64,000 bases of DNA, from the IMG/VR virus record IMGVR_UViG_3300020450_000008. The stretch is one strand, 5' to 3'. The stretch comes from a virus (Duplodnaviria; Caudoviricetes). Below the pieces are notes generated by a model. That model worked only from the letters and a program-made list of their open reading frames with translations. It was not told the origin of the DNA and made no database searches. Positions 6,747-37,233 of the stretch are shown here, one piece after another (position 1 is the stretch's first letter; the number at the start of each line of letters is the position of its first letter). The position numbers and the translations under genes were made by a program.

Positions 6747-9278
6747 ATGAAATCTTTTTATACTTCCGTAAATCGCTATGGCAATTCTATACTTTATCGT
6801 GGTTACAACGAAAATGGAGCTGCCATAGCTCAAAGATATAAATTTTCACCTACACTCTATACACCATCAAAGAAACCTACCAAGTTTAAAGGCTTTGATA
6901 GTGGATATGTTGCACCATTAAGTTTTCCAACTATGAGGGATGCTAAAGAATGGCTGGAACAATATCAAGAGATGGAAGGTGTAAATATATTTGGCACAAA
7001 AAATTATATACATCAGTTTATTACAGAAAAATTTCCTGATAAAATAGACTTTGAGCCAAATGCTATCAATGTTGTTAACTTCGATATAGAAGTTGCATCT
7101 GATTCTGGATTTCCAGTTCCGGAACAAGCGGCATATCCAATCACAGCAATCACAGTTAAATCAAGTCAATCTTCAGTATATCAAGTCTGGGGTTGTGGCG
7201 AATACAGCTCAGAAAAATGTGAAATAGAACTATATGGAAATCTGATTCAATATCACAAGTGTAAGAATGAAACAGAATTACTTGCTAAGTTTCTTGGTTA
7301 TTGGATAAAAAATTATCCTGATGTTATAACAGGTTGGAATACTCGATTCTTTGATATTCCATACATTGTAAATCGTATAAAAAATGTTGGTGGTGAAGCA
7401 GCTGCTAATAGATTATCTCCTTGGAAATTAGTAAGTGAAAGAAACCTAATGATTGGCGGCCGTATGAATTATGGCTATGACATAACTGGCATTCAACAAG
7501 CAGACTATTTAGAATTATTTAGAAAGTTTGGATATTCATATGGTCCACAAGAATCATATCGTCTTGATCATATCGGTCATGTTGTACTTGGTGAACGCAA
7601 ACTTTCTTTTGAAGAACATGGTAGCTTATTAAATCTGTATAAAAATGATCATCAAAAATTTATTGATTATAATATTAAAGATGTTCAATTAGTAGATCGA
7701 ATCGATCAGAAGATGGGACTTATTAATCTAGTATTTACTATGGCTTATAGAGCTGGTGTTAATGTTACAGATACATTTGGCACTACAGCAATATGGGAAT
7801 CAATCATTTATCGTAGATTACAGAAAAATAATATCATAAGCCCTATTGATCAAATTAAAAAAGTCATTTATCAAAATAAATCAAATGCAAATGTTATTGA
7901 AGGTGGCTATGTTAAGGAACCTCAAGTTGGTGCACATGACTGGGTGGTATCATTTGATCTAAACTCTCTATATCCAAACATAATAGTTCAGTCTAATATA
8001 TCACCCGAAACTTTAATTAAAGATAAATCATTCGGTCATTACGAACAAGATGTCCAACACTATCTTAACAGTAAAGATAAAACGTCAAAAGAATATTCTA
8101 TATGTGCAAGTGGTGTTCCTTTCTCTCATGAAAAACAAGGTATCATACCAGAGTTAATTGTTGAATATTATGCAGAACGTACACAAATTAAAAAGAAAAT
8201 GTTAGAAGCTAAATCTGCATATGAAAAAGAAAAGTCTCGCCAACTTGAAGCAGAAATTAATCAACTTGAAAATAATCAAATGGCCATCAAGATCTTATTG
8301 AACTCTCTTTATGGCGCATTGGCCAATAAGTACTTTAAGTATTTTGATAATGCTCTTGCCGAAAGTGTTACACTTACTGGTCAGCTTTCGATTAAATGGG
8401 CAGAAAAAGCTATCAATCAAGAGATGAATAAAGTTCTTAAGACTGGTAATAAAGACTATGTTATAGCAATCGATACCGATTCTTTATACATTAACTTTGG
8501 TCCACTTGTGCAAAAGCTAAATCCAAAAGATCCAGTTGCGGCTATTGATAAACTATGCCAAACACATTTTGAAAAGAAACTTGCTGAGGCTTATGATAAA
8601 CTATTTAATAACTTAAATGGTTATACACCTAGAATGGAAATGGGTAGGGAGGTTATTGCTGATCGTGGAATCTGGACAGCTAAGAAAAGATATATTCTTA
8701 ACGTACATAACTCAGAAGGCGTACAATATGCTGAACCTAAACTTAAGATTATGGGTATTGAAGCTATCAAATCTTCTACACCAGAAGTTGTTCGTAATAA
8801 ATTTAAAGAGGCATTCAAGATTATAGTGTCAGGTGATGAGTTAAAAACTCGTCAGTTTATTAATGATTTTAAAGAAGAGTTTAAACTACTTTCTCCAGAG
8901 ATGGTATCATTTCCAAGAAGTGTACAAAATGTCGGTAAGTGGAAAGATAGAATACACATTTATTCTAAAGGTACTCCAATTCATGTTCGTGGCGCGCTTT
9001 TATATAATCATCATGTATCAGATCTTTTCCTCGATAAAAAATATTCTCAAATCAGCTCAGGCGATAAGATAAAATTTTCTTATCTCAGATTACCAAATCC
9101 TATCAAAGAAAATGTTATATCGTTTCCTGACTTCTTACCACAAGAATTCAAGCTTCATAAATATATCGATTATGATACTCAATTTGATAAAACATTTATC
9201 GAGCCACTCAATCCAATACTTGAAGCGGTTGGGTGGTCAGTAAAAGAACAAGCAACCTTAGAGGAGTTTTTTGGATGA
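6747..9278 (+). CDS. gp43: Family B DNA polymerase, uninterrupted
   Basis: Exo I FDIEV, SFDLNSLYP, KILLNSLYGA, IDTDS; C-terminal clamp-binding-like TLEEFFG. Confidence 0.97.
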   Translation: MKSFYTSVNRYGNSILYRGYNENGAAIAQRYKFSPTLYTPSKKPTKFKGFDSGYVAPLSFPTMRDAKEWLEQYQEMEGVNIFGTKNYIHQFITEKFPDKIDFEPNAINVVNFDIEVASDSGFPVPEQAAYPITAITVKSSQSSVYQVWGCGEYSSEKCEIELYGNLIQYHKCKNETELLAKFLGYWIKNYPDVITGWNTRFFDIPYIVNRIKNVGGEAAANRLSPWKLVSERNLMIGGRMNYGYDITGIQQADYLELFRKFGYSYGPQESYRLDHIGHVVLGERKLSFEEHGSLLNLYKNDHQKFIDYNIKDVQLVDRIDQKMGLINLVFTMAYRAGVNVTDTFGTTAIWESIIYRRLQKNNIISPIDQIKKVIYQNKSNANVIEGGYVKEPQVGAHDWVVSFDLNSLYPNIIVQSNISPETLIKDKSFGHYEQDVQHYLNSKDKTSKEYSICASGVPFSHEKQGIIPELIVEYYAERTQIKKKMLEAKSAYEKEKSRQLEAEINQLENNQMAIKILLNSLYGALANKYFKYFDNALAESVTLTGQLSIKWAEKAINQEMNKVLKTGNKDYVIAIDTDSLYINFGPLVQKLNPKDPVAAIDKLCQTHFEKKLAEAYDKLFNNLNGYTPRMEMGREVIADRGIWTAKKRYILNVHNSEGVQYAEPKLKIMGIEAIKSSTPEVVRNKFKEAFKIIVSGDELKTRQFINDFKEEFKLLSPEMVSFPRSVQNVGKWKDRIHIYSKGTPIHVRGALLYNHHVSDLFLDKKYSQISSGDKIKFSYLRLPNPIKENVISFPDFLPQEFKLHKYIDYDTQFDKTFIEPLNPILEAVGWSVKEQATLEEFFG

Positions 9279-10027: not shown

Positions 10028-10441
10028 ATGAGTACACATTGGTCAAAAGATATTAGTGATATGCATCAAAAGTTTGGTGTTAATAAATGGTTTACTAAAA
10101 ATAAATCAAACAAAGAGATTATGAAAAAATATCTTATGTTTCGAATGCTTATGTTAAATGAAGAACTACATGAAACGATGCAAGCTGTAAATAGTGAAAA
10201 CCCAGAAGAAATAGTAGATGGTTTGATAGACATATGTGTATTTGCAATAGGTACTCTCAATGTTTTAGAAGTTGATGCTGATAAAGCTTGGGATGCCATA
10301 CATAATGCAAACATGGCAAAAGAACCTGGCGTAAAAGCTGGTAGACCTAATCCTTTCGGTATGCCAGATCTATTAAAGCCAGAAGGTTGGAAAGGACCTG
10401 ATCATAGCGACAATCATGGAAGTATCAGCGACATTCTTTAA
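10028..10441 (+). CDS. MazG-like all-alpha NTP pyrophosphohydrolase (candidate dCTPase/dUTPase)
   Basis: EELHE...EEIVDGLID acidic helices; ANMAK, DLLKPEGWKGP. Confidence 0.75.
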   Translation: MSTHWSKDISDMHQKFGVNKWFTKNKSNKEIMKKYLMFRMLMLNEELHETMQAVNSENPEEIVDGLIDICVFAIGTLNVLEVDADKAWDAIHNANMAKEPGVKAGRPNPFGMPDLLKPEGWKGPDHSDNHGSISDIL

Positions 10442-12950: not shown

Positions 12951-13138
12951 ATCTAGGCATAGACTTAGGCGAACCAGACTTTACAACTAAAAATGATAGG
13001 CCAGGATTTATTAGTAGCAGTGGTTGGCCAGTTCGTAGAGAAATAACAAAGTTAAATGACAATATGAAAATTATGGTCAAGCAAATGAGTAAATTAAAAA
13101 AACAAATAAGTAAACTAGAGAAGAAACTAAATGGATAA
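12929..13138 (+). CDS. Hypothetical protein
   Basis: Coupled ORF with coiled-coil C-terminus. Confidence 0.45.
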   Translation: MRKDDIIDLGIDLGEPDFTTKNDRPGFISSSGWPVRREITKLNDNMKIMVKQMSKLKKQISKLEKKLNG

Positions 13139-13838
13139 TATTGTGGAAAATTTAACATGGGCAAAAGTAAAACATATTCGTCAGCATTTTAGAGATGAAT
13201 TAAACAAAGAAGTATTTACTATTGATAAAACTGGTCAAAAGACTATTGAAATGATTGGTGCATCTTTTGTTGCTGATGAATCAGCAATATTTGGTACTCC
13301 TAATCGAGAATATATTGATGCAGAAATAGATTGGTACAATAGTAGATCTACAAATATAAATGAAATATTTGGAATCACAAAAGCACCACCACAAGCTTGG
13401 CAATATTCAGCTAATAAGTTTGGTGAGATCAACTCTAATTATGGCCACTTAATCTTTAGTGAAAAATTTTATAATCAATATTTACATGTTGTAGAAGAAT
13501 TAATAAATAATCCTGATAGTCGTAGAGCCGCAATGATTTACAATCGTCCTTCAATATGGCTTGAATATAATGAAGACGGTAAGAATGATTTTATCTGTAC
13601 TAATGCTGTTACATACTATATACGTAATAGAAGATTAGATGCTGTAGTTCAAATGAGATCTAACGATGTGGTATATGGCTATAAAAATGATTATGCCTGG
13701 CAACAATACGTTATGAAACAACTTATTGAAGATATAAATGTTCAAAGACCCGATGATGATCAAGTCTTTAAAGGTTTTATGCATTGGCAGGTTCAAAACT
13801 TACATGTGTATGAAAGGCACTTTGATTTAGTACAATGA
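13131..13838 (+). CDS. gp42: dCMP hydroxymethylase (thymidylate synthase fold)
   Basis: Collinear with T4 gp42: DKTG.KTIE.IGASFVADE, GEINSNYG, NPDSRR, DF.CTN, MRSNDVV.G.KNDYAWQ, LHVYERHF. Confidence 0.9.
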   Translation: MDNIVENLTWAKVKHIRQHFRDELNKEVFTIDKTGQKTIEMIGASFVADESAIFGTPNREYIDAEIDWYNSRSTNINEIFGITKAPPQAWQYSANKFGEINSNYGHLIFSEKFYNQYLHVVEELINNPDSRRAAMIYNRPSIWLEYNEDGKNDFICTNAVTYYIRNRRLDAVVQMRSNDVVYGYKNDYAWQQYVMKQLIEDINVQRPDDDQVFKGFMHWQVQNLHVYERHFDLVQ

Positions 13839-14383
13839 GTCAATTATTTAAAGATCCAAAAAAACCAGCATTATTTGCAGATATGAATGATCCTGTTCTT
13901 AACGCGACATATAAAACAATGAATATTATTGGAGTCGATCCTGAAAAGAAATGGGATGTAAGATATATTGAACTAGCCTACAAAGTAAGTGAATGGTCAA
14001 AAGATCCATCAACAAAGATAGGATGTGTGGTTGTAGGAAATAAGGGACAGGTATTGACTCAAGGATACAACGGTTTTCCTCGTGGTATTGATGACTCAAA
14101 TGAAAGACTTACAGATAGAGAAACTAAATTGAAATACGTTGTTCATGGAGAAATGAACGCGATATATAATGCTTGTTATAATGGAATATCTCTTGAAGGA
14201 AGTACCATGTATGTTACTGGTCTTCCAACATGCTCTGATTGCGCCAAGGGTGTAATACAAGTAGGTGTTAAAAGAGTTGTCTGGCCTAAAGAACTTGAAA
14301 ATGTTGAAGACAGATGGAAAGAATCTGTTAAATTAACTATGTCTATGTTCGATGAAGCTGGAGTAGAGTATGAGTTCATCTAA
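13835..14383 (+). CDS. cd: dCMP deaminase
   Basis: SKDPSTKIG, GYNGFPRG, HGEMNAI, PTCSDC zinc ligands. Confidence 0.9.
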   Translation: MSQLFKDPKKPALFADMNDPVLNATYKTMNIIGVDPEKKWDVRYIELAYKVSEWSKDPSTKIGCVVVGNKGQVLTQGYNGFPRGIDDSNERLTDRETKLKYVVHGEMNAIYNACYNGISLEGSTMYVTGLPTCSDCAKGVIQVGVKRVVWPKELENVEDRWKESVKLTMSMFDEAGVEYEFI

Positions 14384-15287
14384 TGCTCAAACAAATTTAA
14401 GTCGACTTAAATTAGCAGCAGATAAACCTAAAACTGTTGTAGCTTCTGATTGGAAAAGGTATTATAGTCGGTATGTTGACAGGGCTTTCGCAAGAACAAT
14501 CAATATTGATACATCTACACGTTGCTTGATGCAATGTCCTTTTTGCTCTCGCCAAAATTTTGCAACTGGTAAACTGCACATCAAAACAAATAGAACGTTT
14601 TATGGAGATTTAACTCCAGAAAATGCTTTACAAATGGCTGATGCATTTGATCGTATAAGTTTTTGTGGTCAAATATCAGATCCAATATTTCATAAAAATT
14701 TATTCTCTATATTTGAAGCCTTAGATCAAGGTGCTGCTATTAGAACACTTGAGTTTCATACAGTTGCCTCTGGAAAAAAAATGGCTTGGTGGGAAAGAGT
14801 TTTCTCATATATGGAGAATGCAAAATATAAAACTGATTTTATCATAGGTATTGATGGAATTGATCAGAAAACAGCTTCTCATAGAATAGGACAAAACTTT
14901 GAAGAAGCATGGGAAGTCTTACGATATTTTGCTGATAATAAAAGAGATAATATAGATATCACCTGGCAGTTCATACCCTTTTTATATAATGAAGATGAAG
15001 TGTTAACTGCGGCAGAAACTGCTGTTTCATTAGGGATAAATTTATTACTTCTCAAATCATCTCGTCACGTTGGAGAGTATAAGACAAATACTGGAGATAA
15101 AAAATATGCTATAGGAGCTGATTTATACACTCAAGAAGAATTTGAAAAAAAATTTCAAGGTCATTTACCATTAGCTCCAACGAAATCATTTTTAAAATCA
15201 AATAATGGTATAACAAGTTTTAATGATGGATATATAAAAACAAAGGAAGATATAAAAGAATTAGAAAGAGTTTTAAATGAATCCTAA
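14370..15287 (+). CDS. Radical SAM protein
   Basis: CLMQCPFC (CxxxCxxC), FCGQISDP, IGIDG. Confidence 0.8.
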   Translation: MSSSNAQTNLSRLKLAADKPKTVVASDWKRYYSRYVDRAFARTINIDTSTRCLMQCPFCSRQNFATGKLHIKTNRTFYGDLTPENALQMADAFDRISFCGQISDPIFHKNLFSIFEALDQGAAIRTLEFHTVASGKKMAWWERVFSYMENAKYKTDFIIGIDGIDQKTASHRIGQNFEEAWEVLRYFADNKRDNIDITWQFIPFLYNEDEVLTAAETAVSLGINLLLLKSSRHVGEYKTNTGDKKYAIGADLYTQEEFEKKFQGHLPLAPTKSFLKSNNGITSFNDGYIKTKEDIKELERVLNES

Positions 15288-15858
15288 ACCTATTAGTTTT
15301 GAAATTGATCCAGTGTGTGTACCATTTGATAAAAATGGAGAAGAAAGAGAACAACAAAATTGCGTAGCCTTCGGTTCTCATGGTTGGTACATGCCATGCT
15401 GTTGGTGTGATCAGTTTCAAGATACTCGAAATAATTATATGGATATGTATTCTAAACATTTACATGCTTCAACTGGAATTACACCAAGAGAAGTCCTTGA
15501 ATCTCCAGAATGGCAAAATTTCTTTAAAGTTATTTTTGAAGACCCACAAAACTCTTCTCATGTTTGTCAAAAATATTGTGGTGTCATAAATTATGATGAT
15601 GGTACAAAAAGAAATGTCGTAGGATTTACTGATCAAGAAAGAAGAGATATGGGAAAAGATCTTGAATTTATCAAATTTTTTGAAGAAAATATGGAGAGCA
15701 ATAATAGTTACCAGTACTGGTGGGATTTTGTTCAAGATTATAGTGGTTGGTCAGCAAGAATGAAATCAAAAGCGTGGTTTAGATTTGGATATACAGGGAT
15801 AGGTAGGCTCGCAAAAATTAAAAGACTAGAGGATAATTTAAATGCAGCCAATGTCTGA
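15277..15858 (+). CDS. Stand-alone SPASM/Twitch-like Fe-S domain protein
   Basis: C...G..MPCCWCD...CQKYCG pattern, immediately after the radical SAM gene. Confidence 0.55.
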   Translation: MNPKPISFEIDPVCVPFDKNGEEREQQNCVAFGSHGWYMPCCWCDQFQDTRNNYMDMYSKHLHASTGITPREVLESPEWQNFFKVIFEDPQNSSHVCQKYCGVINYDDGTKRNVVGFTDQERRDMGKDLEFIKFFEENMESNNSYQYWWDFVQDYSGWSARMKSKAWFRFGYTGIGRLAKIKRLEDNLNAANV

Positions 15859-16180
15859 TAGTGCAGAACTCTTGATGCTCTCAAGTATATTTGCTGATCT
15901 TGAAGATGGAGAAACAAGAACAGAAAACATCAAAAGAAGAATAGATCTAATGCAAAAATTTGTTAGACCAACACCTACTCCAGCTAAAGTTGTGTCAACT
16001 CCATCTGAAAAGATGCAAGAAGAACTTGAACCTATTGCAGAACCAGAAGAAGAACAACAATTTAGTTTTTATAAAAAGGCAGATGCTGGTTCTGATTTAG
16101 TAGAACAACTCAGACAGAAAGAAATCATGAGAGCTGAACTTGCAGCTACTGTATCAAAAACCATGAAAAAATACAAATAA
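15842..16180 (+). CDS. Hypothetical protein
   Basis: ORF in operon. Confidence 0.5.
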   Translation: MQPMSDSAELLMLSSIFADLEDGETRTENIKRRIDLMQKFVRPTPTPAKVVSTPSEKMQEELEPIAEPEEEQQFSFYKKADAGSDLVEQLRQKEIMRAELAATVSKTMKKYK

Positions 16181-16640: not shown

Positions 16641-17936
16641 ATGTCAAAAATTAAAGTCGGCATTGTCGGTGTCGGAAACTGTGCTAAGTCTCTCGTCGAG
16701 GGAATTCAATACTACAACTCAAATCCAGAAGATAAAGTAGGACTTATGTATGATGATATTGGTGGTTATACAACTACTGATATAGAATTCGTAGTCGGTT
16801 TTGATGTAGATCGTCGTAAAGTAAATCGTCCATTAACAGAAGCTTTAAGAGCCGCTCCAAACTGCGCTATGGATCATGTTGGAGAAATATTAGAAGTCGG
16901 TGCAAACACTCCAGGCTGTGTAGCTTCAGGAGCTATGGTATATTCTGGACCAGAACTAGATGGTATCGCACCATGGATGCTTGAATATCCTAAAGAAGTT
17001 TCATTTAGAACTGGAGCTGAAGCGGCAAAATCTTATGATGATATTGTAGACATAATTAAAAAGACTAAAGTTGATGTTCTGATTAATTATTTACCAGTTG
17101 GTACAGAAAAAGGGTCTAGATTTTATATGGATGCTGCATTAGACGCTGGTGTTCATTTTGTTAATTGTATTCCAACTCTTATATCAACTAAAGAAACTAT
17201 GGAGATAGAACAAAAGTTTATCAACAAAGGATTGACTATTGTTGGATCTGATATGAGATCCGCTTGGGGAGCTTCAAGAATGTCAGAAGTACTTCAAGGT
17301 GCTATGATAGATTCAGGACTAATGGTTACACAACATATACAGATGAATATGGCCGCTGGTTCTACTCAAGGTCAAGAAAATATACGAACAGGTAGAACAG
17401 CTAATACTGATTTTCTTAACATGGCAGAAAAATCTCGATTGCATAATAAACATGTATCAAAAGAAAATGTTTTGAAAGGTCAAAATATAGTACGTAATGA
17501 ACCTACAGCAGGTGCAACACTTTATGCTGGTCCATCTCTTACAGTATTTCAAAAGCCAGGTGGACAATATGTAGGTAGTGATAATAAAATAGCTAACTTC
17601 GATATTGTTGCTTATGGTTTTGGTGGGGCTAGATATGAAATGTCAGCTAGATTATCAGTACAAGACTCTCCAAACTCTGGTGGTGTTGTAGTATCTGCAA
17701 TCAGGTTCTGCAAAGTTGCATCTGAAATGAGCATTGTTGGTTATCTTAGAGGTCCATCAGCATGGACTCAAAAAACTCCTCCACTTCAGTTATCTACATC
17801 TGATTCAAAATTTGAATGTGATGCTTTGGCAAGACGTACTCTTACAAAATTAACTGAAGCTCAATTAAAAGTAAATAAACCAAAAGCAAAAAGTCTACCA
17901 TATACATTCCAAGCTGGAGAAACAGATTATGAGTAG
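16641..17936 (+). CDS. ino1: Myo-inositol-1-phosphate synthase
   Basis: VGIVGVGNCAKSLVEG, VLINYLPVG, FVNCIP, TANTDFLNM, DSPNSGGVV. Confidence 0.9.
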   Translation: MSKIKVGIVGVGNCAKSLVEGIQYYNSNPEDKVGLMYDDIGGYTTTDIEFVVGFDVDRRKVNRPLTEALRAAPNCAMDHVGEILEVGANTPGCVASGAMVYSGPELDGIAPWMLEYPKEVSFRTGAEAAKSYDDIVDIIKKTKVDVLINYLPVGTEKGSRFYMDAALDAGVHFVNCIPTLISTKETMEIEQKFINKGLTIVGSDMRSAWGASRMSEVLQGAMIDSGLMVTQHIQMNMAAGSTQGQENIRTGRTANTDFLNMAEKSRLHNKHVSKENVLKGQNIVRNEPTAGATLYAGPSLTVFQKPGGQYVGSDNKIANFDIVAYGFGGARYEMSARLSVQDSPNSGGVVVSAIRFCKVASEMSIVGYLRGPSAWTQKTPPLQLSTSDSKFECDALARRTLTKLTEAQLKVNKPKAKSLPYTFQAGETDYE

Positions 17937-18333
17937 AGAACCTTTTGAGCCTTGGAAAAACATTCCTCAAAAGACTATAAATTCATATGATATCGATGGC
18001 GTTATATACATGGGTGACTATGATGGATTAAGGCCAGGACCTGATGATATCGTAATTACTGGTAGATCTATTTGTACCGAAGAAGAAACTAAAAAAATGC
18101 TTCTTAAAAAAGGTATAACTAATCCTTTATACATGAATTTTAAAGACAAAGACTATAATAATAGAGAACAATCTGGATTTCATAAAGGTTGGACTTTATT
18201 TCATCTTGAGCAGCTGGGGTATCATATTGGAATCCATTATGATGATGATATGATTCAAATCGAAAAGATAAATGAAATGATGCCGCATATTCATTGCGTT
18301 CATGTAAAACACGAACTTGTACCAAAGGAGTAA
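17929..18333 (+). CDS. Small HAD-family phosphatase
   Basis: YDIDGVI motif I, ITGRS motif II, K, YDDD motif IV. Confidence 0.75.
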   Translation: MSREPFEPWKNIPQKTINSYDIDGVIYMGDYDGLRPGPDDIVITGRSICTEEETKKMLLKKGITNPLYMNFKDKDYNNREQSGFHKGWTLFHLEQLGYHIGIHYDDDMIQIEKINEMMPHIHCVHVKHELVPKE

Positions 18334-18335
18334 AC

Positions 18336-19406
18336 ATGTACAACTATGATTGGTGGTCTTACGATAAAGACATAATGAAAGATTTTAATCATTTCTTAAA
18401 AAAGATTAATACTCGAGCATGTATCAATTATGGTTTTATTGATGAGGAATATGAAAACTTAAATAGGCATGGAGACTTAGATCATGGTCTTGGTCGTAAT
18501 GTAGAATATTTCCACCCTACAATTACTTTAGATGATAGAATGAGATATATTGGTACAGTCATTGCGCAGCATGATATGTCTGATTTTAGTATTTTAGGCA
18601 ATGGTATAATATCTCACTTTTATGGAGCACGTGGCGTTCATATGGCAGTTACAGGATCTAACGATCCTAATGACTGTTTTGTTGATTTTGACAAATTAGC
18701 TGATAATGATAAAGATTACCTACAGCATCTTAGAAATAATATAGATAATTCTAGAAAGTTAAAAAAACCAATATGGGGTACAACAGAACTTCATACATCA
18801 ATACAAGCAGCTTCTAGAAATTATTGTAGACAAAAATATGATGACGCTGAAAGAGCATTCCATCCTGTTGACGTAGTTGATTGGGTTGCATCATTTAGAA
18901 ATAATGGAACATATGAAGAACTCTTTGCCGCAGATCATATTGGAGAAGCTTATAAAATATTAAGAAAGTTACCAGGTATTGGAGAATATTACGGATTTCA
19001 TGGTGCTGCATCAACTAGTGTTTTACCTCAAATGAAATATTATCATGATGATAAATTTGTAGCTCCAGGACCTGGTGCAGTATATACAATAGGACTTATG
19101 TGGCCAAAGGCTCCAAAAAAATATTATGCAGAAGCAATTTACTTCTTAAGAGAAAACAGCGATGAGATTGGTCTTACAGAAGATGTTAGTTTTCATCCAG
19201 GCGCTTATAACATCGATATGCCAGGTGGAAAAAAGCTTTTTAGAGAAGATCAAAAAACTCTTAAATATTATGGTACTGAAGTTTTATCTTGTCAGTTTGG
19301 TATATACTTACAGATTAGAGAAGATGCTAAGCTATGTGCAAAACGTCAGGTATCAAGAGCTACAGTACTTGAAGATCAAAATACGTTAGAAAGTTTTATG
19401 CAATGA
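18336..19406 (+). CDS. aGPT-Pplase / amino acid:DNA transferase-like (HhH-fold) DNA hypermodification protein
   Basis: LRKLPGIG HhH-like motif followed by YYGFH...DDKFVAPGPGA; AAGGAG SD before ATG 18336. Confidence 0.55.
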   Translation: MYNYDWWSYDKDIMKDFNHFLKKINTRACINYGFIDEEYENLNRHGDLDHGLGRNVEYFHPTITLDDRMRYIGTVIAQHDMSDFSILGNGIISHFYGARGVHMAVTGSNDPNDCFVDFDKLADNDKDYLQHLRNNIDNSRKLKKPIWGTTELHTSIQAASRNYCRQKYDDAERAFHPVDVVDWVASFRNNGTYEELFAADHIGEAYKILRKLPGIGEYYGFHGAASTSVLPQMKYYHDDKFVAPGPGAVYTIGLMWPKAPKKYYAEAIYFLRENSDEIGLTEDVSFHPGAYNIDMPGGKKLFREDQKTLKYYGTEVLSCQFGIYLQIREDAKLCAKRQVSRATVLEDQNTLESFMQ

Positions 19407-20389
19407 AAGCAATATTAAACTGTCCATTTATTCCAGTAGCAAAAAGAATAGCTTCTCACAGAGGAGCTCAAGGCGTTATGTATGGCGATATGATAAAACA
19501 AAAGTATGGTCATTGTGATGTCAACTTTGGTGGCGAGATTATAGATCATAATCAGTATGATACGATGTGGGTATATCATGGAAATGATTTTAGTGGTGGA
19601 TTAAATATGTTTGGTGGCGTTTATGGTTTTCCTTATGTAGAAAATACAGTAAACTTTTCTAAGTTTAAAGGTAAAATAAAATCAATAGCCATTGACTTTC
19701 CGCCATATCATGAATGGATAAAAGATAAATTAGATAAAGCTAAGAAAGACGTACAGCCTGAATGGGCCAGTGTAGATTTAAATAATCTTGAAAGAATGTA
19801 TAATGAAGCTGAAACGGTTGATTATCCAAATATGACCGACAAATTAGTCATAGGTGATTCACATTCGATATGCATGTATAGACCGGGTTGGACCGTCAAT
19901 AGCATACCATTTAAAACTTTAAATGGAGCTTTAAAAGAAGGTATTAAAACATTCATACCAAAAGGAAGTTTCAATCAAATAGAATTGTACTTTGGCAATA
20001 TTGATATAAGACATCATGTGTGTAGGCTAAATGCTGATATAGAAGAATTGGCTGATAGATATATTGAACAAGCAAAAGAATTGAATGCTAAAATATATGA
20101 ACTATTGCCAATAGAAAATGAATCACGCAAGTTACCACAATCTGGATATTATAAAGGCGAACCTTTCTGGGGTACATGGCAAGAAAGAACAGATGCAAGA
20201 AATAAATTTAATGATTACATTGAAAGCAAATATGGAATCATACGTTGGACGGATAAATTACTAAATAAAACTGGTGAACTTGATTTTGCATGTATGGAAA
20301 AACCAAAGTCAATACATTTAAGTAGAGAGTTCTATCCTCACTGGAACGGAGAGGAAGAGGTAAATACATTAGAGGAGTTTTTCGGATGA
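19403..20389 (+). CDS. Hypothetical protein with SGNH-like GDSH motif
   Basis: VIGDSHS, YFGNIDIRHH, SIHL; ends TLEEFFG. Confidence 0.5.
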   Translation: MKAILNCPFIPVAKRIASHRGAQGVMYGDMIKQKYGHCDVNFGGEIIDHNQYDTMWVYHGNDFSGGLNMFGGVYGFPYVENTVNFSKFKGKIKSIAIDFPPYHEWIKDKLDKAKKDVQPEWASVDLNNLERMYNEAETVDYPNMTDKLVIGDSHSICMYRPGWTVNSIPFKTLNGALKEGIKTFIPKGSFNQIELYFGNIDIRHHVCRLNADIEELADRYIEQAKELNAKIYELLPIENESRKLPQSGYYKGEPFWGTWQERTDARNKFNDYIESKYGIIRWTDKLLNKTGELDFACMEKPKSIHLSREFYPHWNGEEEVNTLEEFFG

Positions 20390-21582
20390 GCTTTGCAAGT
20401 ATAGTGCCACTCATAGGTGGTGAAACAATAGCAATGCAAAATGTATCAGGTAAAAAACCAGAATACATATTAAGCTATTCAGCGTTTGAAGCAAATGATA
20501 ACCAATTAGTTGAATACTATGATAACAAAGTACCATACTATCATTTAGATGGTAATATGCCAAAAAGTTTACCAACTGTAGAGTCTGTCAATACTGTTTG
20601 TCCTTGTGCTGGATTAAGCAGTCTTTCTCCAGTTGCTGGTACAAATAATAGTAATAATGATTGGATGAGTAAAACAGCTAAACATGTTTTAGAACATATC
20701 AATCCTAAAGTGTTTTGGGGAGAAAACGCTCCAAGACTTGCAAGTAAAATGGGTGAGCCTATAGTTAAAAATCTTAGAAAAATTGGAAGTGACAATGGAT
20801 ACACATTTTCAATATATAAAACAAAATCAATATTACATGGATTAAGTCAGGTAAGAGATAGAACCTTCTATTTCTTTTGGAAAGGAGATAAGATTCCACG
20901 CTTACCTTATATTCACAGAAATTACGAGCGTATTGAAGATACCATTAGAAATACAAAGCTTAAAAAAGATGATCCAATGAATATTCCAGTAAATAGTAAG
21001 GCTCCTACAGATAATCCTTTTTATAAGTATGTACTAGAGGAGATAGAAGGTGGTATAACACATTCAGAATTTCAAGAAAAAATAGAGCGTAGTACCAATC
21101 CTTTAGAAGAAATAGAGAGAGCCGGTATAAAATATCGTACTGTAGGCGAGTGGATGACTAAAAAAGGCTATGATAGAGAAGCAGAAAAGTGTAAAAGAAT
21201 GCATGATAAATTAGCATCAGGTGGTAACATAATGCGTAAAACTACTGAAATACCAAAAGATTATATTGGAGCTTTTGTTGGTCATATGCCAACATCACTA
21301 ACACATCCTGATGAAGATAGGTATCTTACAGTAAGAGAATGTTTATCAATCATGAAATTACCTGATGATTTTATGTTACAAGGTGGTCTTAAAAATCTTA
21401 ATCATATTTGCCAAAACGTTCCTGTGACTACGGCAGAAGATATGGCCACTAGTGTTCATGCTTTTGTAGAGGGAAGGCTTGATAACCAGATGATTGATAC
21501 AAAATTTTTAGTACAAGATAACAAAAATAAGTCATTGGATTATCAAAGAGAAAGCATGCAACTAGATGAGTTTATGGTATAG
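20386..21582 (+). CDS. Atypical C5-cytosine DNA methyltransferase-fold protein
   Basis: Motif IV CPCAGLS, VI ENAP, VIII QVRDRTF, IX RYLTVRECLSIM; motif I degenerate (VPLIGG) and motif X degenerate (CQNVP). Confidence 0.7.
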   Translation: MSFASIVPLIGGETIAMQNVSGKKPEYILSYSAFEANDNQLVEYYDNKVPYYHLDGNMPKSLPTVESVNTVCPCAGLSSLSPVAGTNNSNNDWMSKTAKHVLEHINPKVFWGENAPRLASKMGEPIVKNLRKIGSDNGYTFSIYKTKSILHGLSQVRDRTFYFFWKGDKIPRLPYIHRNYERIEDTIRNTKLKKDDPMNIPVNSKAPTDNPFYKYVLEEIEGGITHSEFQEKIERSTNPLEEIERAGIKYRTVGEWMTKKGYDREAEKCKRMHDKLASGGNIMRKTTEIPKDYIGAFVGHMPTSLTHPDEDRYLTVRECLSIMKLPDDFMLQGGLKNLNHICQNVPVTTAEDMATSVHAFVEGRLDNQMIDTKFLVQDNKNKSLDYQRESMQLDEFMV

Positions 21583-21590
21583 GAGATAAA

Positions 21591-22529
21591 ATGAAAATAT
21601 TAATAACAGGACAAGCTGGATTTATAGGTTTCCATGCCGCTATTGGATTTAAAAATGATGGTTGGGAAGTACATGGTATTGATAACTTCAATGATTATTA
21701 TGATGTAAAACTGAAAAGAGATAGAGCTACTATTCTTCAAGATTTAGGAATTTCTACTATTGATGATACCATTGAAAATTTTAATAAAATAGATTTTCCA
21801 GAATATGATTTAATACTACATTTAGCCGCTTATACAAATCCCAGACACGCTTTAAAAACTCAACAACCTTATATTGATACTAATATTACAGCAACTCAAA
21901 GAATAATTGATGTAGCACAAGATAAAGGAACACCAGTTGTATACGCTTCAAGCAGTTGCGTCATGCTAGGACAACCACTTCCTTGGAATGAAACCGATAG
22001 ACCACAACATCAAAACAATCCTTATGGTTGGTCAAAGCATGTCAATGAATGCCAATTTAAACACTCAACTGTTGTAAGATCTGCTGGATTGAGATTCTTT
22101 ACGGTTTATGGTCCTTATGGAAGACCTGATATGGCACTGTTTTCTTTTACAAGATCGATAGTAAAAGATGAAGGAATAGTTTTATATAACTACGGCGATA
22201 TGAAAAGAGACTTTACTTACGTAGATGATATTATCCAAGGTATAAAAATAGTTGCAAACAAACTTATGAAAGATGAAGAAAACTATCATGAGATATATAA
22301 TATTGGGTATGGTGATCAAGTAGAGTTAATTGACTTCGTTGATCATATTGAAAAGAATCTTGGTAGAAAGACCGAAAGAAAATTAGAACCAATGCATCCT
22401 GCAGATGCAAAAGAAACTTGGTCAGATACTACAAAGCTTCAAGCACTTGGATATAAACCAACAACTCCTGTACAAATAGGAGTTGCTAAATTCGTTGAAT
22501 GGTATAAACAATATTATAATGTAAATTAA
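21591..22529 (+). CDS. NAD-dependent sugar epimerase (UDP-glucuronate 4-epimerase/WcaG-like)
   Basis: ITGQAGFIG, ASSS, YGWSK (YxxxK), RFFTVYGPYGRPDMA, RDFTYVDD. Confidence 0.9.
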   Translation: MKILITGQAGFIGFHAAIGFKNDGWEVHGIDNFNDYYDVKLKRDRATILQDLGISTIDDTIENFNKIDFPEYDLILHLAAYTNPRHALKTQQPYIDTNITATQRIIDVAQDKGTPVVYASSSCVMLGQPLPWNETDRPQHQNNPYGWSKHVNECQFKHSTVVRSAGLRFFTVYGPYGRPDMALFSFTRSIVKDEGIVLYNYGDMKRDFTYVDDIIQGIKIVANKLMKDEENYHEIYNIGYGDQVELIDFVDHIEKNLGRKTERKLEPMHPADAKETWSDTTKLQALGYKPTTPVQIGVAKFVEWYKQYYNVN

Positions 22530-22699
22530 TGGCGTTATTATATCTCATATTCATGGGATTCGTTATATTAACTTTGCTATGGGTAGGACTACTTATAATA
22601 ATATGGGTATTATCTATTTCATTCGCTATAGCTTATTATATCGTTTTACCAGTGATAGCAATATTACTAATACTAATTATGATTGGATCAATTTTTTGA
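22529..22699 (+). CDS. 56-aa very hydrophobic membrane peptide (absent from ORF track)
   Basis: Hand translation MALLYLIFMGFVILTLLWVGLLIIIWVLSISFAIAYYIVLPVIAILLILIMIGSIF; TAATG coupling to epimerase. Confidence 0.55.
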   Translation: MALLYLIFMGFVILTLLWVGLLIIIWVLSISFAIAYYIVLPVIAILLILIMIGSIF

Positions 22700-22728
22700 T
22701 TTACATTTTGATGAAAATATTATATAAT
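22700..22728 (+). promoter_or_regulatory. Early promoter of uvsX
   Basis: TTTACA-N17-TATATA. Confidence 0.55.
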
Positions 22729-22756
22729 ATAATATATGACAAAATAGGAGAACTGC

Positions 22757-23794
22757 ATGTCGATAATGGATAAACTCAAAAAGAACTCAAAGCTAAGTCA
22801 TACCGAAGTTCTTTCAGAGTCTAAATTTTTTACAGAAAAAGATATGGTAACAACTGACGTACCTATGTTAAACGTTGCTCTATCTGGTTCTGTTGAAGGT
22901 GGCTTAGCACCAGGACTTACTGTATTAGCGGGTCCATCAAAACATTTTAAAACTTCCTTTGCATTAATGATTGCTTCATCGTATCTTAAAAAATATCCTG
23001 AAGCCGTAATGCTATTTTACGATTCAGAGTTTGGTTCACCACAATCTTACTTTCAGCAATTTGAAATTGATACGTCAAGAGTTTTGCATACACCTATTAC
23101 AAATGTAGAAGAACTTAAATTTGATCTTATAGGTCAACTTGAAAATCTTGATCGTAATGATAAAGTTATTGTTGTTATAGATTCGATAGGTAACCTAGCA
23201 TCTAAAAAAGAAATGGAAGATGCACTTAATGAAAAGTCTGTTGCGGATATGTCTAGGGCAAAAGCGCTTAAAGGTTTATTTAGAATGACCACTCCATATC
23301 TTGCAATGAAGAATATTCCTTTACTAGCTGTTAACCATACCTATATGGAAATAGGTTTATTTCCTAAAGCTGTTGTTGGTGGTGGTACTGGTATTTACTA
23401 TTCTGCAGACAATATCTGGATCATTGGTCGTCAACAGGATAAGAAAGGTACTGAAATTAGAGGTTACCATTTCGTAATTAATGTAGAAAAATCAAGATAT
23501 GTAAAAGAAAAATCTAAAATTCCAATATCAGTTACTTGGGAAGGTGGCGTATCTAAATTTTCTGGATTACTTGATGTAGCTCTTGCTGGTGGACATGTTG
23601 TAAAACCATCAATGGGTTGGTATCAGCGAAAAGGTGACGAAGGTAAAGTGCGTGAGGCTGGAACTTTGGAAGAAAGTTTTTGGGAGCCAATCTTTAAGGA
23701 TACTGACTTTAAAGAGTTTATAAAGAAGCAATATTCTATTGGATATACCGCACCTGTTGATATGGAAGAGATTGCTGAAGATGCAGTTGCTTGA
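22757..23794 (+). CDS. uvsX: RecA-like recombinase UvsX
   Basis: LAGPSKHFKTSF, FYDSEFG, IDSIGNLASKKE, DMSRAK, GGTGIYYSAD. Confidence 0.95.
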   Translation: MSIMDKLKKNSKLSHTEVLSESKFFTEKDMVTTDVPMLNVALSGSVEGGLAPGLTVLAGPSKHFKTSFALMIASSYLKKYPEAVMLFYDSEFGSPQSYFQQFEIDTSRVLHTPITNVEELKFDLIGQLENLDRNDKVIVVIDSIGNLASKKEMEDALNEKSVADMSRAKALKGLFRMTTPYLAMKNIPLLAVNHTYMEIGLFPKAVVGGGTGIYYSADNIWIIGRQQDKKGTEIRGYHFVINVEKSRYVKEKSKIPISVTWEGGVSKFSGLLDVALAGGHVVKPSMGWYQRKGDEGKVREAGTLEESFWEPIFKDTDFKEFIKKQYSIGYTAPVDMEEIAEDAVA

Positions 23795-24092
23795 AGAAAA
23801 TGTTGATTATGAGTTCATAGCAACTGATGAAGATGTTAGTAAGTGGCGTGTAAGAATGCTTACTGGACCATATCCTGAAACAATAATATCTTTTGGTAAA
23901 GTTACGGCATTTGAAAATGAAACAAATGAAGATGCAACTCTTAAATTTGATTTCATTATACACTATAGTCCAGATGAAATGCTTACAGATAAAGATGCCG
24001 GTCTTCAACAAGCCGCTGGAAATATTTTAGTAGCTATACTTGAAAGTTCAATGGTGGGAAAAGAAATATTTACTACAAGCGAGGATAAATGA
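23781..24092 (+). CDS. Hypothetical protein between uvsX and gp41
   Basis: ORF, likely start ATG 23781. Confidence 0.55.
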   Translation: MQLLEENVDYEFIATDEDVSKWRVRMLTGPYPETIISFGKVTAFENETNEDATLKFDFIIHYSPDEMLTDKDAGLQQAAGNILVAILESSMVGKEIFTTSEDK

Positions 24093-33588: not shown

Positions 33589-34143
33589 ATGAAAACTATT
33601 TTAATAGACTGTGATGGTGTCATACTGGATTGGGAAGGTGCTTTCCATGAATACATGAAATCTATGGGATATGAAAGATCTGGAACTGAAGGATACGTAG
33701 AAGAACAATATAATAAAGAGAGATCTGAAGTAATACAATACATACATGATGTAAATCATTCAGATAAAATTAAAAATTTAAATCCAATAAAAGATTCGAT
33801 TCACTATATGAAACTACTAAAAAGCATTGGATATAATTTTATTTGTATAACAAGTATAAGTAGAAATGAATCAGTTAAAAAAAATAGAATGGAAAATTTT
33901 GATAGATTGCTCGGAAAAGATTTTTTTGATGAAGTAATATTTTTAAATACGGCAGAGAAAAAAGATGACGTATTAAAAAAATACAAAGATAGTAATTATT
34001 GGTGGATAGAAAATAATTGGAAAAATGCGCAAACAGGAGCAAGATTAGGATTACGATCTATTTTAATTACACAAGAGAAAAGAAGAGACGTAATATGTCT
34101 TAAAGATTGGACTAACATATATTTGGAGATACTCTTATCATGA
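33589..34143 (+). CDS. 5'(3')-deoxyribonucleotidase-like HAD protein
   Basis: LIDCDGVILDW, CITS, K, WIEN (degenerate motif IV). Confidence 0.7.
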   Translation: MKTILIDCDGVILDWEGAFHEYMKSMGYERSGTEGYVEEQYNKERSEVIQYIHDVNHSDKIKNLNPIKDSIHYMKLLKSIGYNFICITSISRNESVKKNRMENFDRLLGKDFFDEVIFLNTAEKKDDVLKKYKDSNYWWIENNWKNAQTGARLGLRSILITQEKRRDVICLKDWTNIYLEILLS

Positions 34144-35144
34144 GTAATTTTATAGAACTAGATTTTTTAGAAAAATATGATTTAGTGGCTGAAATGAAGA
34201 GAATGGAAGACATTCTTGACTGGGGAAACACTGAGCAAATATGCATCAACACAATAAAAGAGAAACCAGATGACCATCAGTTTGGAACAGGAAGTCTTTA
34301 CATTGATTGGAAAAAAACAGAATCTGGAAATATGGAATGGGTTTTAAAAGATAATCCACCATCAGAAAGTGATTTCACTGAAACAGTTACTATGTTTAAA
34401 GAAACTCTTTTCGATAAGATACTTCAAGATTTAAAAAAATATTATGACATTGGTAGAGTTAGACTTATGAGATCATCTCCAAAGACTACTCTTACTTGGC
34501 ACACAGATGATACAATAAGACTTCACTATCCTTTAGATACCTATGAAGGTTGTTTCATGGTAATTGGAAAAGAAATACAGCATCTTAAAGCTGGAAAGTG
34601 GTATGAAACTAATACGCTTGTTCAACATACGGCATTTAACGCTAGTCAAAATAAAAGAACACACTTAGTTGTAAATGTTGTAAAAAAGAAAATACCAAAC
34701 AAAATAGTTATGAATGGACATGAAGGTATGTTAGGAAAAGTAATTTACAAAAATTTTCCATGTGATCAAATACGCTCTTCAACAGATAAAATAGTTGAGC
34801 AAGTAAAAGATTACGATATTTTCATAAATAATGTTTACTCAAAAGAAATGCAATACGAATTGATGAAAAAAGTATGGGAAGTTTGGAAGTATAATTCTAA
34901 AAAAAGAATAATAAACATTGGAAGTCGTGCCAAAGATTTTATAAAAGATGAGTATGGATTTCATAAAAATGTTTTAAGTAATTTTACAAAGCACGCTAAT
35001 TTCAATGGATCATGTAGAGTGAGTTGTATAAATTTTGGTTATCTTGATGAACTTACTGAAGATGAAATTATAGATACATTAACATACGTTTTAAGTAGTA
35101 AAATAAACATAGAAGAAGTGACGGCGTTTTCAACAAATGAATAA
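34140..35144 (+). CDS. 2OG-Fe(II)/Asp-hydroxylase-like oxygenase fused to an SDR-like Rossmann domain
   Basis: RVRLM...WHTD (HxD)...HTAFN...RTHLV, then GHEGMLG, DIFINN, IINIGS, YxxxK (YGFHK). Confidence 0.65.
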   Translation: MSNFIELDFLEKYDLVAEMKRMEDILDWGNTEQICINTIKEKPDDHQFGTGSLYIDWKKTESGNMEWVLKDNPPSESDFTETVTMFKETLFDKILQDLKKYYDIGRVRLMRSSPKTTLTWHTDDTIRLHYPLDTYEGCFMVIGKEIQHLKAGKWYETNTLVQHTAFNASQNKRTHLVVNVVKKKIPNKIVMNGHEGMLGKVIYKNFPCDQIRSSTDKIVEQVKDYDIFINNVYSKEMQYELMKKVWEVWKYNSKKRIINIGSRAKDFIKDEYGFHKNVLSNFTKHANFNGSCRVSCINFGYLDELTEDEIIDTLTYVLSSKINIEEVTAFSTNE

Positions 35145-35826
35145 TATAATAACTATCAAATGGGGCACTAAATATGGCCCTGAATATCCAAATAGACTTT
35201 ATGAAGAATGCAAACAAAAATGTTCTTTTCACTTTAATTTTTATTGTGTAACAGATAATCCTGAAGGATTAAATGAAGATATAATATCTTTAGAAATGCC
35301 TAAACACAGTAATTTAAATTATAATGATTATATAGAAGATCATCTAAATTATAAAACGCAAATGTGGGATAGACCTAAACTTTATCTCTTTTCTGACTTT
35401 GATTTTAGAGGAACAAATATATTTTTAGATCTAGACTCAGTAATAAATGAAGATATATCATATTTGACAACTTTACCAAATGACAAACCGTGGTGTATAG
35501 ACATGTGGTGGAAAGTAGGTTACAAAGAAAATTGGGATAAATTATGGGGAACTAGAGCAAACACAAGTGTGATGGTATGGAAAAATGATCAATGTAAAGA
35601 GATAACAGAAAGAATACTATCAAATCCAGAGCTTTTTGATAAGTATGCTACGATAGATTGCTTTATAGGTTATGAAATGCTTGATTACGAAAACTATCAA
35701 AAATCATTTTTTAATTTTATACCACCATTTGTTTATATACTTGGAAAGGAATATCAAGCCGGATATAAAATATCGTTATTTAGTAACAGTAAAATGGGAA
35801 GGCACACTGACGAACCTGGAATATGA
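35137..35826 (+). CDS. GT-A glycosyltransferase-like protein
   Basis: IKWGTKYGPEYPNRL, CVTD, FLDLD (DxD), NTSVMVW. Confidence 0.7.
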   Translation: MNNIITIKWGTKYGPEYPNRLYEECKQKCSFHFNFYCVTDNPEGLNEDIISLEMPKHSNLNYNDYIEDHLNYKTQMWDRPKLYLFSDFDFRGTNIFLDLDSVINEDISYLTTLPNDKPWCIDMWWKVGYKENWDKLWGTRANTSVMVWKNDQCKEITERILSNPELFDKYATIDCFIGYEMLDYENYQKSFFNFIPPFVYILGKEYQAGYKISLFSNSKMGRHTDEPGI

Positions 35827-36359
35827 TTATAGAAGTTATTGAAGATAGACATTTTAAGATGTTAGAATATTTTTGTCAAAGGTGTAAAATACTAGGATTT
35901 GAAAATAATTCTAGTTTTGAAGCCATGAAACTTTTATGGTGCAAAAGTTGGGGAGAATACTGGTGTGCTATTGATGATAATGAAATAGTTGCAGTTGGTG
36001 GGTGCCATCCTTTACCTGAAGTATCTCCAACAGCTTGGAGAATATTATTTAGAGGTTGTGAACTTCCAAATAAATACACGTTTAAAGGTCTAGGTAAAGG
36101 AGATTGGAATAGTATAACTCAAAGAGAATTCATTCCGCTTATGATAAAATACTGCCCATCTTCTGAAATCTTTTTAACAACACACAGAGGTGGTGTACAT
36201 GAAAAGAACCATAAACTCATGACATTACTTTCTAAACAAAAGAATCCTTATTTAGTATATCATACGACAATGGAATTATATAATACTGAACAGACAATAT
36301 GGAGAGTAAAAGTTCCTACATATTTTGAAAGAAGAGGAAAACTAAAAAATGTTAGATAA
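35823..36359 (+). CDS. GNAT-like hypothetical protein
   Basis: WCAIDDNEIVAVGGC beta pattern followed by RILFRG. Confidence 0.4.
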   Translation: MIIEVIEDRHFKMLEYFCQRCKILGFENNSSFEAMKLLWCKSWGEYWCAIDDNEIVAVGGCHPLPEVSPTAWRILFRGCELPNKYTFKGLGKGDWNSITQREFIPLMIKYCPSSEIFLTTHRGGVHEKNHKLMTLLSKQKNPYLVYHTTMELYNTEQTIWRVKVPTYFERRGKLKNVR

Positions 36360-37233
36360 ATTAACAGCTTGGCATAATGGTGAGTATAAACCACTTGGAA
36401 ATGTAAAGATTAGTCCACTTGATTTTGGGTTTATACATTCGGATGCAACATATGATGTTATAAGAGTTAATGAAAGAAAAATATTATTTTGGCAGTATCA
36501 TGTAGAAAGATATCACAAAGCTTGTCATTATTATGGATTCGATCAAATAGATTACGAAGATATTTTAGAAATATCATCTAATTTAATTATTAAAAATAAT
36601 TTAAAAAATGCATTTATATGGATATGTAATTGGAGAGGAACACCAGAAAGTGGTAGTCCTAGAGATATTTGTAATGCGCCCCAGCATCAATTGATTTATG
36701 TAAAGCCGTATTATCCCATTAACGACAACAAACCTATTAGCTTGATATCTTGGTACGAGAATAAAAGATCCGATGCTGCATATCCACAAATATATAAAAA
36801 CTTTTCATGGATAGAATTTACGCGTGCACAATTAGACGTGCAACAAAAAGCACAAGTTGATTCAGCTGTATTACTAAGTCCGGAAGGTTACATAACTGAA
36901 GGTCCTGGTTTTGGAGTTTGTTTTGTAAAAGATAATAAAGTAATAACACCTAAGAGAAATGTTTTAAAAAGTGTTACTATTGATATAGTTGGAAACTTAT
37001 GTAAAGATTTAAATGGTGAGTTTGAAAGAAAAGATATAACATTAGAAGAAGCTCATTCAGCTGATGAATGTTTTATATGTAGTACAAGTGGAGGTATAAC
37101 ACCAGTAAATAAATTTGATCATGTTTGGTTAAAACATAAATTAACTATTATTCTCATGAGAGAATTTGCTGAGTTTATAAAAGGTGGATATAAGCAAGCC
37201 CACGGTTATTATCATCTTATTAAAGAAAGGTAA
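36349..37233 (+). CDS. PLP fold-type IV aminotransferase
   Basis: GFIHSDATYDV, catalytic Lys in YKNFSW, ITEGPGFG, L..VT, ADECFICSTSGGITPV. Confidence 0.88.
   Translation: MLDKLTAWHNGEYKPLGNVKISPLDFGFIHSDATYDVIRVNERKILFWQYHVERYHKACHYYGFDQIDYEDILEISSNLIIKNNLKNAFIWICNWRGTPESGSPRDICNAPQHQLIYVKPYYPINDNKPISLISWYENKRSDAAYPQIYKNFSWIEFTRAQLDVQQKAQVDSAVLLSPEGYITEGPGFGVCFVKDNKVITPKRNVLKSVTIDIVGNLCKDLNGEFERKDITLEEAHSADECFICSTSGGITPVNKFDHVWLKHKLTIILMREFAEFIKGGYKQAHGYYHLIKER

Follow-up and report, generated by a model that had tools for sequence, protein, structure and literature searches.

The gene at positions 20386–21582 (+ strand) of IMG/VR record IMGVR_UViG_3300020450_000008, a 64,000-nucleotide stretch of viral DNA referred to here as a whole as the window, encodes a 398-residue protein (P0001) with the fold of the DNA cytosine C5-methyltransferases (C5-MTases), in which the catalytic residues are kept and the motifs that contact S-adenosylmethionine (SAM) appear to be replaced by a different, fixed set. 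This methylase-like protein belongs to a subfamily characterised by its PLIGG and QNVP motifs, which is linked to the phage pathway for 5-hydroxymethylcytosine (hmC) and ends in a tail of the clamp-binding type; the combination of a C5-MTase fold, a conserved cofactor site of another kind, such a tail and such a link seems to be new. The explanation that is favoured here, with a probability of roughly 0.4, is that of a replication-coupled enzyme that acts on the hmC or glycosyl-hmC of the phage DNA by chemistry between a cysteine and C6 of the base, and not by ordinary methyl transfer. As part of the same tentative explanation, the family would form a separate branch within the C5-methyltransferase fold, one proper to phage hmC DNA systems.

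The fold is well defined in the computational model. The Pfam profile DNA_methylase (PF00145) covers residues 2–356 of the methylase-like protein (E = 8.6e-18), and an AlphaFold2 model that was built with 45 family members as input reaches a mean predicted local distance difference test score (pLDDT) of 94.6. The product of this open reading frame (ORF) is thus modelled with the two domains of the C5-MTase fold: in VIA-align it gives Z scores of 25.3 against M.HaeIII and 25.1 against M.HhaI (278–296 residues, root-mean-square deviation 3.2–3.4 Å), and Foldseek matches it to M.HhaI with E = 4e-14. The family itself was delimited by an exhaustive HMMER search of 1.84 billion cluster representatives, which yielded 760 clusters (50% identity) at E ≤ 1e-3 and 238 at E ≤ 1e-30, and its members are frequent in marine viromes. 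All the conservation counts given below refer to 127 full-length representatives of 50%-identity clusters, which are 28–57% identical to the query, and the motifs were read both directly and from HMMER alignments to M.HaeIII (1DCT) and to the phage enzyme CmoX (8YF3).

The motifs involved in catalysis are those of a normal methylase. Motif IV, C72-P-C74-A-G-L-S (20599–20619), contains the catalytic Cys74 and aligns with the PC motif of M.HaeIII and CmoX, motif VI reads E113-N-A-P (20722–20733), motif VIII reads Q155-V-R157-D-R159 (20848–20862), all three on the + strand, and motif IX reads RYLTVRE. Cys74 is found in 126 of the 127 representatives, while Glu113, Arg157 and Arg159 are each found in all of them. 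With these residues a C5-MTase attacks C6 of a flipped-out cytosine-type base covalently, and since the Cys, the Glu and the Arg residues are invariant in the family, covalent chemistry at C6 of such a base has in all probability been retained. The intactness of the PC, EN and QxRxR motifs had been pointed out in an earlier note on this DNA, together with the unusual readings VPLIGG in motif I and CQNVP in motif X, and the direct reading and the alignments confirm both observations.

It is in the cofactor pocket that the family departs from its relatives. Motif I, I6-V-P-L-I-G-G12 (20401–20421, +), stands where (L)FxGxGG is expected, at a structural offset of +11 to M.HhaI, and is conserved as P-L-(I/V)-G-G (Pro8 in 124, Leu9 in 122 and Gly11 in 124 of the 127), with Val or Ile in place of Phe and Leu in place of the first Gly in 122–124 representatives. 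Motif X, C342-Q343-N-V-P (21409–21423, +), is aligned by HMMER with G-N-A-V-P of M.HaeIII and G-R-M-V-P of CmoX; its Gln343 (124/127, followed by Asn344 in 121/127) corresponds to Asn304 of M.HhaI, which faces the methyl group to be transferred, and to Arg350 of CmoX. At the motif II site, which lies at the end of strand β2 and is assigned from the topology of the model and the +11 offset to M.HhaI rather than by residue-level superposition, position 30 is a Ser in 111 of the 127 representatives and is followed by an aromatic residue, and no conserved acidic residue that could serve as the motif II Glu, which binds the ribose of SAM, occurs at positions 29–36. The structural alignment begins at residue 1 of the model and residue 12 of M.HhaI, and it places Val7 on Phe18, Leu9 on Gly20 and Ser30 at or next to Glu40. 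At the level of sequence profiles, no solved C5-MTase in the PDB was aligned by HMMER to positions 1–40 of the family profile, the match starting only at about residue 41, and an hhalign comparison with E. coli Dcm covers motifs IV–VIII only and leaves the N-terminal part unaligned (the alignments start at about residues 41–66).

All three SAM-contacting motifs (I, II and X) thus appear to have been exchanged for another fixed set. Because this set is different but strongly conserved, the pocket is better regarded as a working, altered one than as an eroded one, and the word "degenerate", which the earlier note had applied to these motifs, was wrong, given that PL(I/V)GG and QNVP are nearly invariant in the 127 representatives. 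The sequence and the model, which is ligand-free, suggest that the binding of SAM may have been lost.

The genomic company of the family is equally characteristic. Synteny was compared in 80 related IMG/VR loci (62–93% identity), 22 of which include 6 kb or more of the sequence ahead of the methylase-like gene, and in 20 of these 22 the order is polymerase, MazG, primase-like gene, DUF1599, gp42, dCMP deaminase, a variable cassette, the methylase-like gene, UvsX, gp41 and ThyX; the exceptions are one locus with no detected gp42 (L015) and one in which gp42 lies downstream (L055). In two unrelated phages, whose family members are 30–32% identical, the arrangement is a thymidylate synthase (TS) homologue, a dNMP-kinase-like gene, two cytidylyltransferase-like genes, a GT-B-like gene and the methylase-like gene (L084), or a kinase-like gene, a TS homologue, a gene of 408 residues, the methylase-like gene and MazG (L086). 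Family members are also present in cultured phages, namely the cyanophages S-TIM5 and S-TIM54 and the Pseudoalteromonas phage vB_Psh_XG4, which has a gp42-like gene 5 kb away. In the S-TIM5-type cyanophages the methylase-like protein reads IIPLVGG and CQNVP, and the adjacent "ThyA" has an Asp in place of Asn177 of the E. coli enzyme.

A wider sample gives the same picture. A TS-family gene occurs in 27 of 44 further IMG/VR records with family members, including all four of the records estimated to be at least 90% complete, and all the divergent TS homologues that could be typed in family-bearing records (28 of 28) carry Asp143, Cys146, Asp169 and Asp177 (E. coli ThyA numbering). By published criteria, these residues denote an enzyme that uses dCMP and forms a hydroxymethyl group, that is, a 5-hydroxymethyl-dCMP synthase and not a 5-hydroxy-dCMP synthase (PMC13326640). 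Five canonical Asn177 ThyA genes in these records are extra copies in large genomes. None of 19 records with Dcm-type C5-MTases has a TS homologue, although this comparison set consists of enterobacterial proviruses and is a poor match for large lytic phages. As far as the residues allow it to be read, the family accompanies a TS homologue of the dCMP hydroxymethylase type in every lineage examined. A separate observation concerns cyanophage S-TIM54 (OP053362.1), where the ThyA gene (L001, 6117–6959, − strand) lies two genes from the methylase-like gene and encodes Asp at the Asn177 site, the switch from dUMP to dCMP, with Cys as residue 143; its product would be either 5-methyl-dCMP or 5-hydroxymethyl-dCMP.

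The window contains the same pathway. The gp42 orthologue, a dCMP hydroxymethylase (13131–13838, +), matches the T4 gp42 structures (1B5E and others) with E = 1.1e-70 and has the signature Asp143, Cys146, Asp169 and Asp177, the specificity Asp being retained, which bears out the earlier claim that gp42 is present. It is accompanied by a dCMP deaminase (13835–14383, +; Pfam E = 3.9e-21) and by a MazG-like nucleotide pyrophosphohydrolase (10028–10441, +; Pfam PRA-PH E = 1.3e-9, PHROG nucleotide pyrophosphohydrolase E = 2.8e-24), which is a candidate dCTPase. Together with ThyX, these genes indicate that the phage has a T4-style route to hmC DNA. Given a pathway of the T4 type, the tie of the family to it and the systematic difference of its cofactor motifs from those of SAM-dependent C5-MTases, the protein is unlikely to serve mainly for the ordinary methylation of the phage genome at C5; the earlier suggestion that such methylation would be redundant in the presence of gp42 is supported by the persistence of this tie across distant lineages.

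A third feature is the C-terminal tail, Q-L-D-E-F-M-V (21559–21579, +), which resembles a polymerase clamp-binding tail. The pattern LxxF[FM] is shared, in the window, with the ends of the T4-type DNA polymerase (QATLEEFFG), of the 328-residue product of the neighbouring upstream gene (NTLEEFFG) and of a protein with an HMUDK-type helical domain (QNTLESFMQ, a full PIP-type motif). In close relatives, the methylase-like tail is QLDxFM[VIL] in 73 of the 80 loci and the polymerase tails are (S/T)LExFF. Tails of this type were counted in 164 of the 1113 ORFs of the 80 loci, which comprise 79 methylase-like proteins, 17 polymerases, 28 copies of two cassette proteins, one ThyX-like protein and 39 proteins without a homologue in the window; a Pfam scan of eight of these 39 identified four proteins similar to the T4 alpha-glucosyltransferase (AGT; PF11440, E down to 2e-52) and two TAGT proteins (PF20691, E = 4e-21), and the tailed AGT-like and TAGT genes often lie immediately 5' of the methylase-like gene. 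The GT-B-like partner in L084 also carries a tail, G-L-E-D-F-F. The tail of the methylase-like protein is predicted to bind the sliding clamp, and there is a precedent for a clamp-bound modifier of hmC in the T4 alpha-glucosyltransferase, which binds gp45 (PMC13216743). When the last 36 residues of the methylase-like protein of a relative were co-folded with three copies of gp45, the score of 0.57, with 0.45 for one control, spoke neither for nor against binding. The sharing of polymerase-type tails suggests that clamp tethering is general to the DNA-modifying enzymes of marine T4-like phages. Many clades of the family (P0121–P0270) end in K-x-L-F and not in L-E-x-F-F, an ending that resembles the bacterial β-clamp-binding pentapeptide, as if the type of tail followed the kind of clamp of each phage.

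The gene usually lies directly 3' of a DNA glycosyltransferase or another hypermodification enzyme. In the window this position is occupied by the gene of the 328-residue protein (19403–20389, +; phrog_13881, a family without assignment), whose stop overlaps the start of the methylase-like gene by 4 nt; its fold model has a pLDDT of 66, and it gives only a weak SGNH-like match and a weak match to the T4 beta-glucosyltransferase. Farther upstream, the variable cassette includes an inositol-3-phosphate-synthase-like gene and a HAD/PNK-like phosphatase (16641–18333, +), which occur in 11–12 of the 80 related loci. Several cassettes are interchangeable at this point: the one with inositol-phosphate synthase is found in 11–16 of those loci, and in other relatives its place is taken by DNA glycosyltransferases of the T4 AGT-like or TAGT type. 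As the cassette is interchangeable and the methylase-like gene is constant, the role of the latter would be general to hmC DNA and independent of inositol; the link with inositol derivatives that the earlier note had considered is therefore weak, the cassette being present in a minority of close relatives and the gene persisting without it. In two loci of the clade with the tail ...KKLF (L088, 7005–18285, and L089), a 10-kb cluster for glycan synthesis comes after the methylase-like gene. It contains a CMP-sugar synthetase plus GT8, a GT29 sialyltransferase-like gene plus GT8, a Methyltransf_21 gene, two capsule-synthesis genes and two pyruvyl transferases, and its product may be either a complex glycan on the DNA or a polysaccharide of the surface.

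The mechanism that is proposed can be described as follows. The tail would hold the methylase-like enzyme on the sliding clamp, so that it acts on newly made phage DNA. As the cytosines of this DNA already carry CH2OH at C5, the chemistry at C6 could not end as ordinary methylation; instead, Cys74 would add to C6 of hmC (or of glycosyl-hmC) and thereby loosen the C5 substituent, which the enzyme would then exchange or alter, while the hydroxymethyl group and a co-substrate would occupy the rebuilt pocket where SAM normally sits. It is known that C5-MTases deprived of SAM destabilise C5 substituents, including the hydroxymethyl group (PMC11347137). These reactions, described in vitro by the Klimasauskas laboratory, involve the same addition of Cys to C6 and the loss or exchange of the C5 substituent (PMC11347137), and they are the sole known chemical route by which a C5-MTase fold acts on hmC; they are known, however, as test-tube side reactions of normal methylases, and in the literature searched no natural enzyme dedicated to them was found described, nor was the methylase-like family. 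That the family is the first natural class of enzymes to use the C5-methyltransferase fold without methyl transfer, riding on the clamp and rebuilding the C5 side chain of hmC, is a bolder claim and a doubtful one.

Several observations weigh against the proposed action on hmC. The main ground for caution is that the classical hmC glycosyltransferases of the relatives could perform all the decoration by themselves. Within the pocket, Tyr31 after β2 and the acidic Asp55 after β3 (88/127) remain, and an adenosine-type ligand could bind there. The 17 of 44 records that have no TS homologue also have to be counted, even if all of them are fragments and hence uninformative rather than contrary, and so does the fact that the Tet_JBP domain, which was found in none of the 44 family-bearing records, many of them fragmentary, was searched for without a positive control. 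Finally, if the S-TIM5-type ThyA, with Asn177 changed to Asp, makes 5-methyl-dCMP, an exchange of hydroxymethyl groups would be inapplicable in those phages.

The alternative that survives best, although it is unlikely, is that the protein is a SAM-dependent C5-methyltransferase with an unusual site, which rides on the clamp and methylates leftover unmodified cytosines or particular sites, removing bare cytosine from the reach of host restriction enzymes or of phage nucleases directed against cytosine-containing DNA. Neither the catalytic motifs nor any part of the fold is missing, the adenine could still be held by Tyr31 and Asp55, and a clamp tether suits a methylase that scans DNA for maintenance, as DNMT1 does with PCNA. 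Moreover, the C5-MTases associated with TET in phages are active methylases (PMC8256090). On the other hand, motifs I, II and X have all given way to other, invariant residues. This alternative gives no account of the restriction of the family to phages with hydroxymethylase-type TS homologues, or of its translational coupling to glycosyltransferases, and T4 achieves full replacement of its cytosine without any known enzyme of this kind.

A donor other than SAM has also been considered, and this is rather less credible still. In this case the protein would install a one-carbon or larger group on leftover cytosines in DNA, feeding the neighbouring glycosyltransferase, either by post-replicative hydroxymethylation from formaldehyde or methylene-tetrahydrofolate or with a SAM analogue read by Gln343. 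This residue does occupy the donor-reading position, where the carboxy-SAM enzyme CmoX has an Arg, and the gene is coupled to that of an hmC-requiring glycosyltransferase; in addition, C5-MTases reportedly add aldehydes to cytosine in vitro, according to work of Liutkeviciute and Klimasauskas. Nevertheless, no CmoA-like or other cofactor-making gene was found in the 64-kb window, and gp42 and MazG should already give nearly complete replacement. A non-catalytic or stoichiometric partner, such as a subunit that flips or binds hmC for the neighbouring glycosyltransferase on the clamp or protects newly made DNA, is very improbable, for although start and stop overlap with a tailed upstream enzyme in at least four lineages, the invariance of Cys74, Glu113, Arg157 and Arg159 at 30% identity is hard to explain without catalysis, and the T4 glucosyltransferases flip the base themselves.

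The proposed hmC-directed enzyme can be set beside several known systems. With the SAM-dependent enzymes M.HhaI and M.HaeIII (PF00145) it shares the two-domain fold, the Cys of the PC motif, the Glu of ENx, QxRxR and motif IX; it differs from them in having VPLIGG and not FxGxGG, Ser for the motif II Glu and Gln for the motif X Asn, in a small domain that is helical and conserved within the family rather than variable, in its clamp-type tail and in its occurrence in hmC-pathway phages only. DNMT1, with its PIP box, is another C5-MTase fold tethered to the clamp for work on nascent DNA, as is proposed for the methylase-like protein; it is a eukaryotic, SAM-dependent enzyme and its PIP box is N-terminal, unlike the tail considered here, which is C-terminal.

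The closest sequence match in the PDB is CmoX (8YF3), likewise a phage protein with the C5-MTase fold and a change at the position of M.HhaI Asn304. CmoX is a DNA cytosine C5-carboxymethyltransferase that uses carboxy-SAM as the donor, and in its crystal structure Arg350 replaces this Asn and contacts the carboxymethyl group (PMC12783734). CmoX retains the SAM-binding residues Phe25, Glu47 and Asp69 in addition to Arg350, whereas the methylase-like protein has Val7, Ser30 and Gln343; the SPPC sequence of the CmoX type is absent from the latter, which reads V-C-P-C, and CmoX has a partner, CmoA. The substrates are also different, unmodified cytosine in the case of CmoX, while the family studied here is located in hmC phages. 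The idea that carboxy-SAM might be the donor was set aside: no CmoA was detected among the scanned ORFs of the 64-kb window, where the ORF at 39029 is a generic partial class I methyltransferase whose best PDB matches are not CmoA.

The T4 alpha-glucosyltransferase is similarly tied to hmC DNA, acts after replication and binds gp45 (PMC13216743), and AGT-like genes with the same tail adjoin the methylase-like gene in relatives, but this enzyme has a GT-B fold and transfers a sugar to a hydroxyl without covalent attack on the base. The TET-associated phage C5-MTases also occur in marine viral contigs near TAGT/GT, epimerase and CTP-transferase genes (Burke et al., 2021; PMC8256090). They make 5-methylcytosine for oxidation by TET and are active with SAM in E. 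coli (PMC8256090). Membership of the methylase-like family in this group was considered and appears unlikely, given that it pairs with a pre-replicative hydroxymethylase and that Tet_JBP was found in 0 of the 44 records by the uncontrolled search; nor was this domain found among the scanned ORFs of the 64-kb window.

The known phage routes to hypermodified cytosine consist either of glycosyl transfer to hmC or 5-hydroxycytosine, or of alkylation of cytosine with SAM or carboxy-SAM followed by further steps, and a family that is linked to the hmC pathway and that lacks the standard SAM motifs fits none of them. If the protein does act on hmC, the SAM-free chemistry so far known as a curiosity of the laboratory would turn out to occur in nature, hypermodified cytosines could be reached in a new way and enzymes for the site-directed rewriting or labelling of 5hmC could possibly be obtained. 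If, on the contrary, it is an ordinary methylase, then SAM could evidently be used without FxGxG, without the Glu of motif II and without the Asn of motif X, and hmC phages would be patching leftover cytosine.

As for the remainder of the genome, its source is an uncultured marine T4-like myovirus, whose T4-type DNA polymerase (6747–9278, +) shares 54% identity with the Phage C48C1 enzyme and about 48% with cyanomyovirus polymerases. The protein with the HMUDK-type helical domain (18336–19406, +; Pfam HMUDK_hel, E = 4e-9), as found in 5-hmdU DNA kinase and aGPT-Pplase, is encoded just before the gene of the 328-residue protein, and genes for a DUF1599 protein, a cupin, a cytidylyltransferase-like protein and a member of the UDG superfamily are also located upstream on the same strand. 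On the other side, an NAD-dependent nucleotide-sugar epimerase is encoded at 21591–22529 (+; Pfam Epimerase, E = 1.1e-37), UvsX and a gp41-type helicase are found directly downstream of the methylase-like gene, and ThyX is found farther downstream.

Between the dCMP deaminase and the UDG-like gene (14370–16180, +) there is a radical SAM gene with two small ORFs; at a threshold of 1e-8, the radical SAM gene and the ORF of 193 residues have no match in the 80 related loci and the ORF of 112 residues has one. A second co-oriented metabolic island of low GC content extends over 33589–42412 (+) and comprises a HAD hydrolase, an Asp/Asn beta-hydroxylase-like gene, a class IV aminotransferase, a partial class I SAM-methyltransferase, a B12-binding radical SAM enzyme, pieces of an AMP-binding enzyme and a second GMP-reductase/IMPDH-like gene, the first copy of which is at 466–1521. 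Lastly, DNA nearly identical to positions 18000–24000 of the window is found in marine metagenome contigs from at least six studies (2014–2025), which indicates that the phage is widespread.

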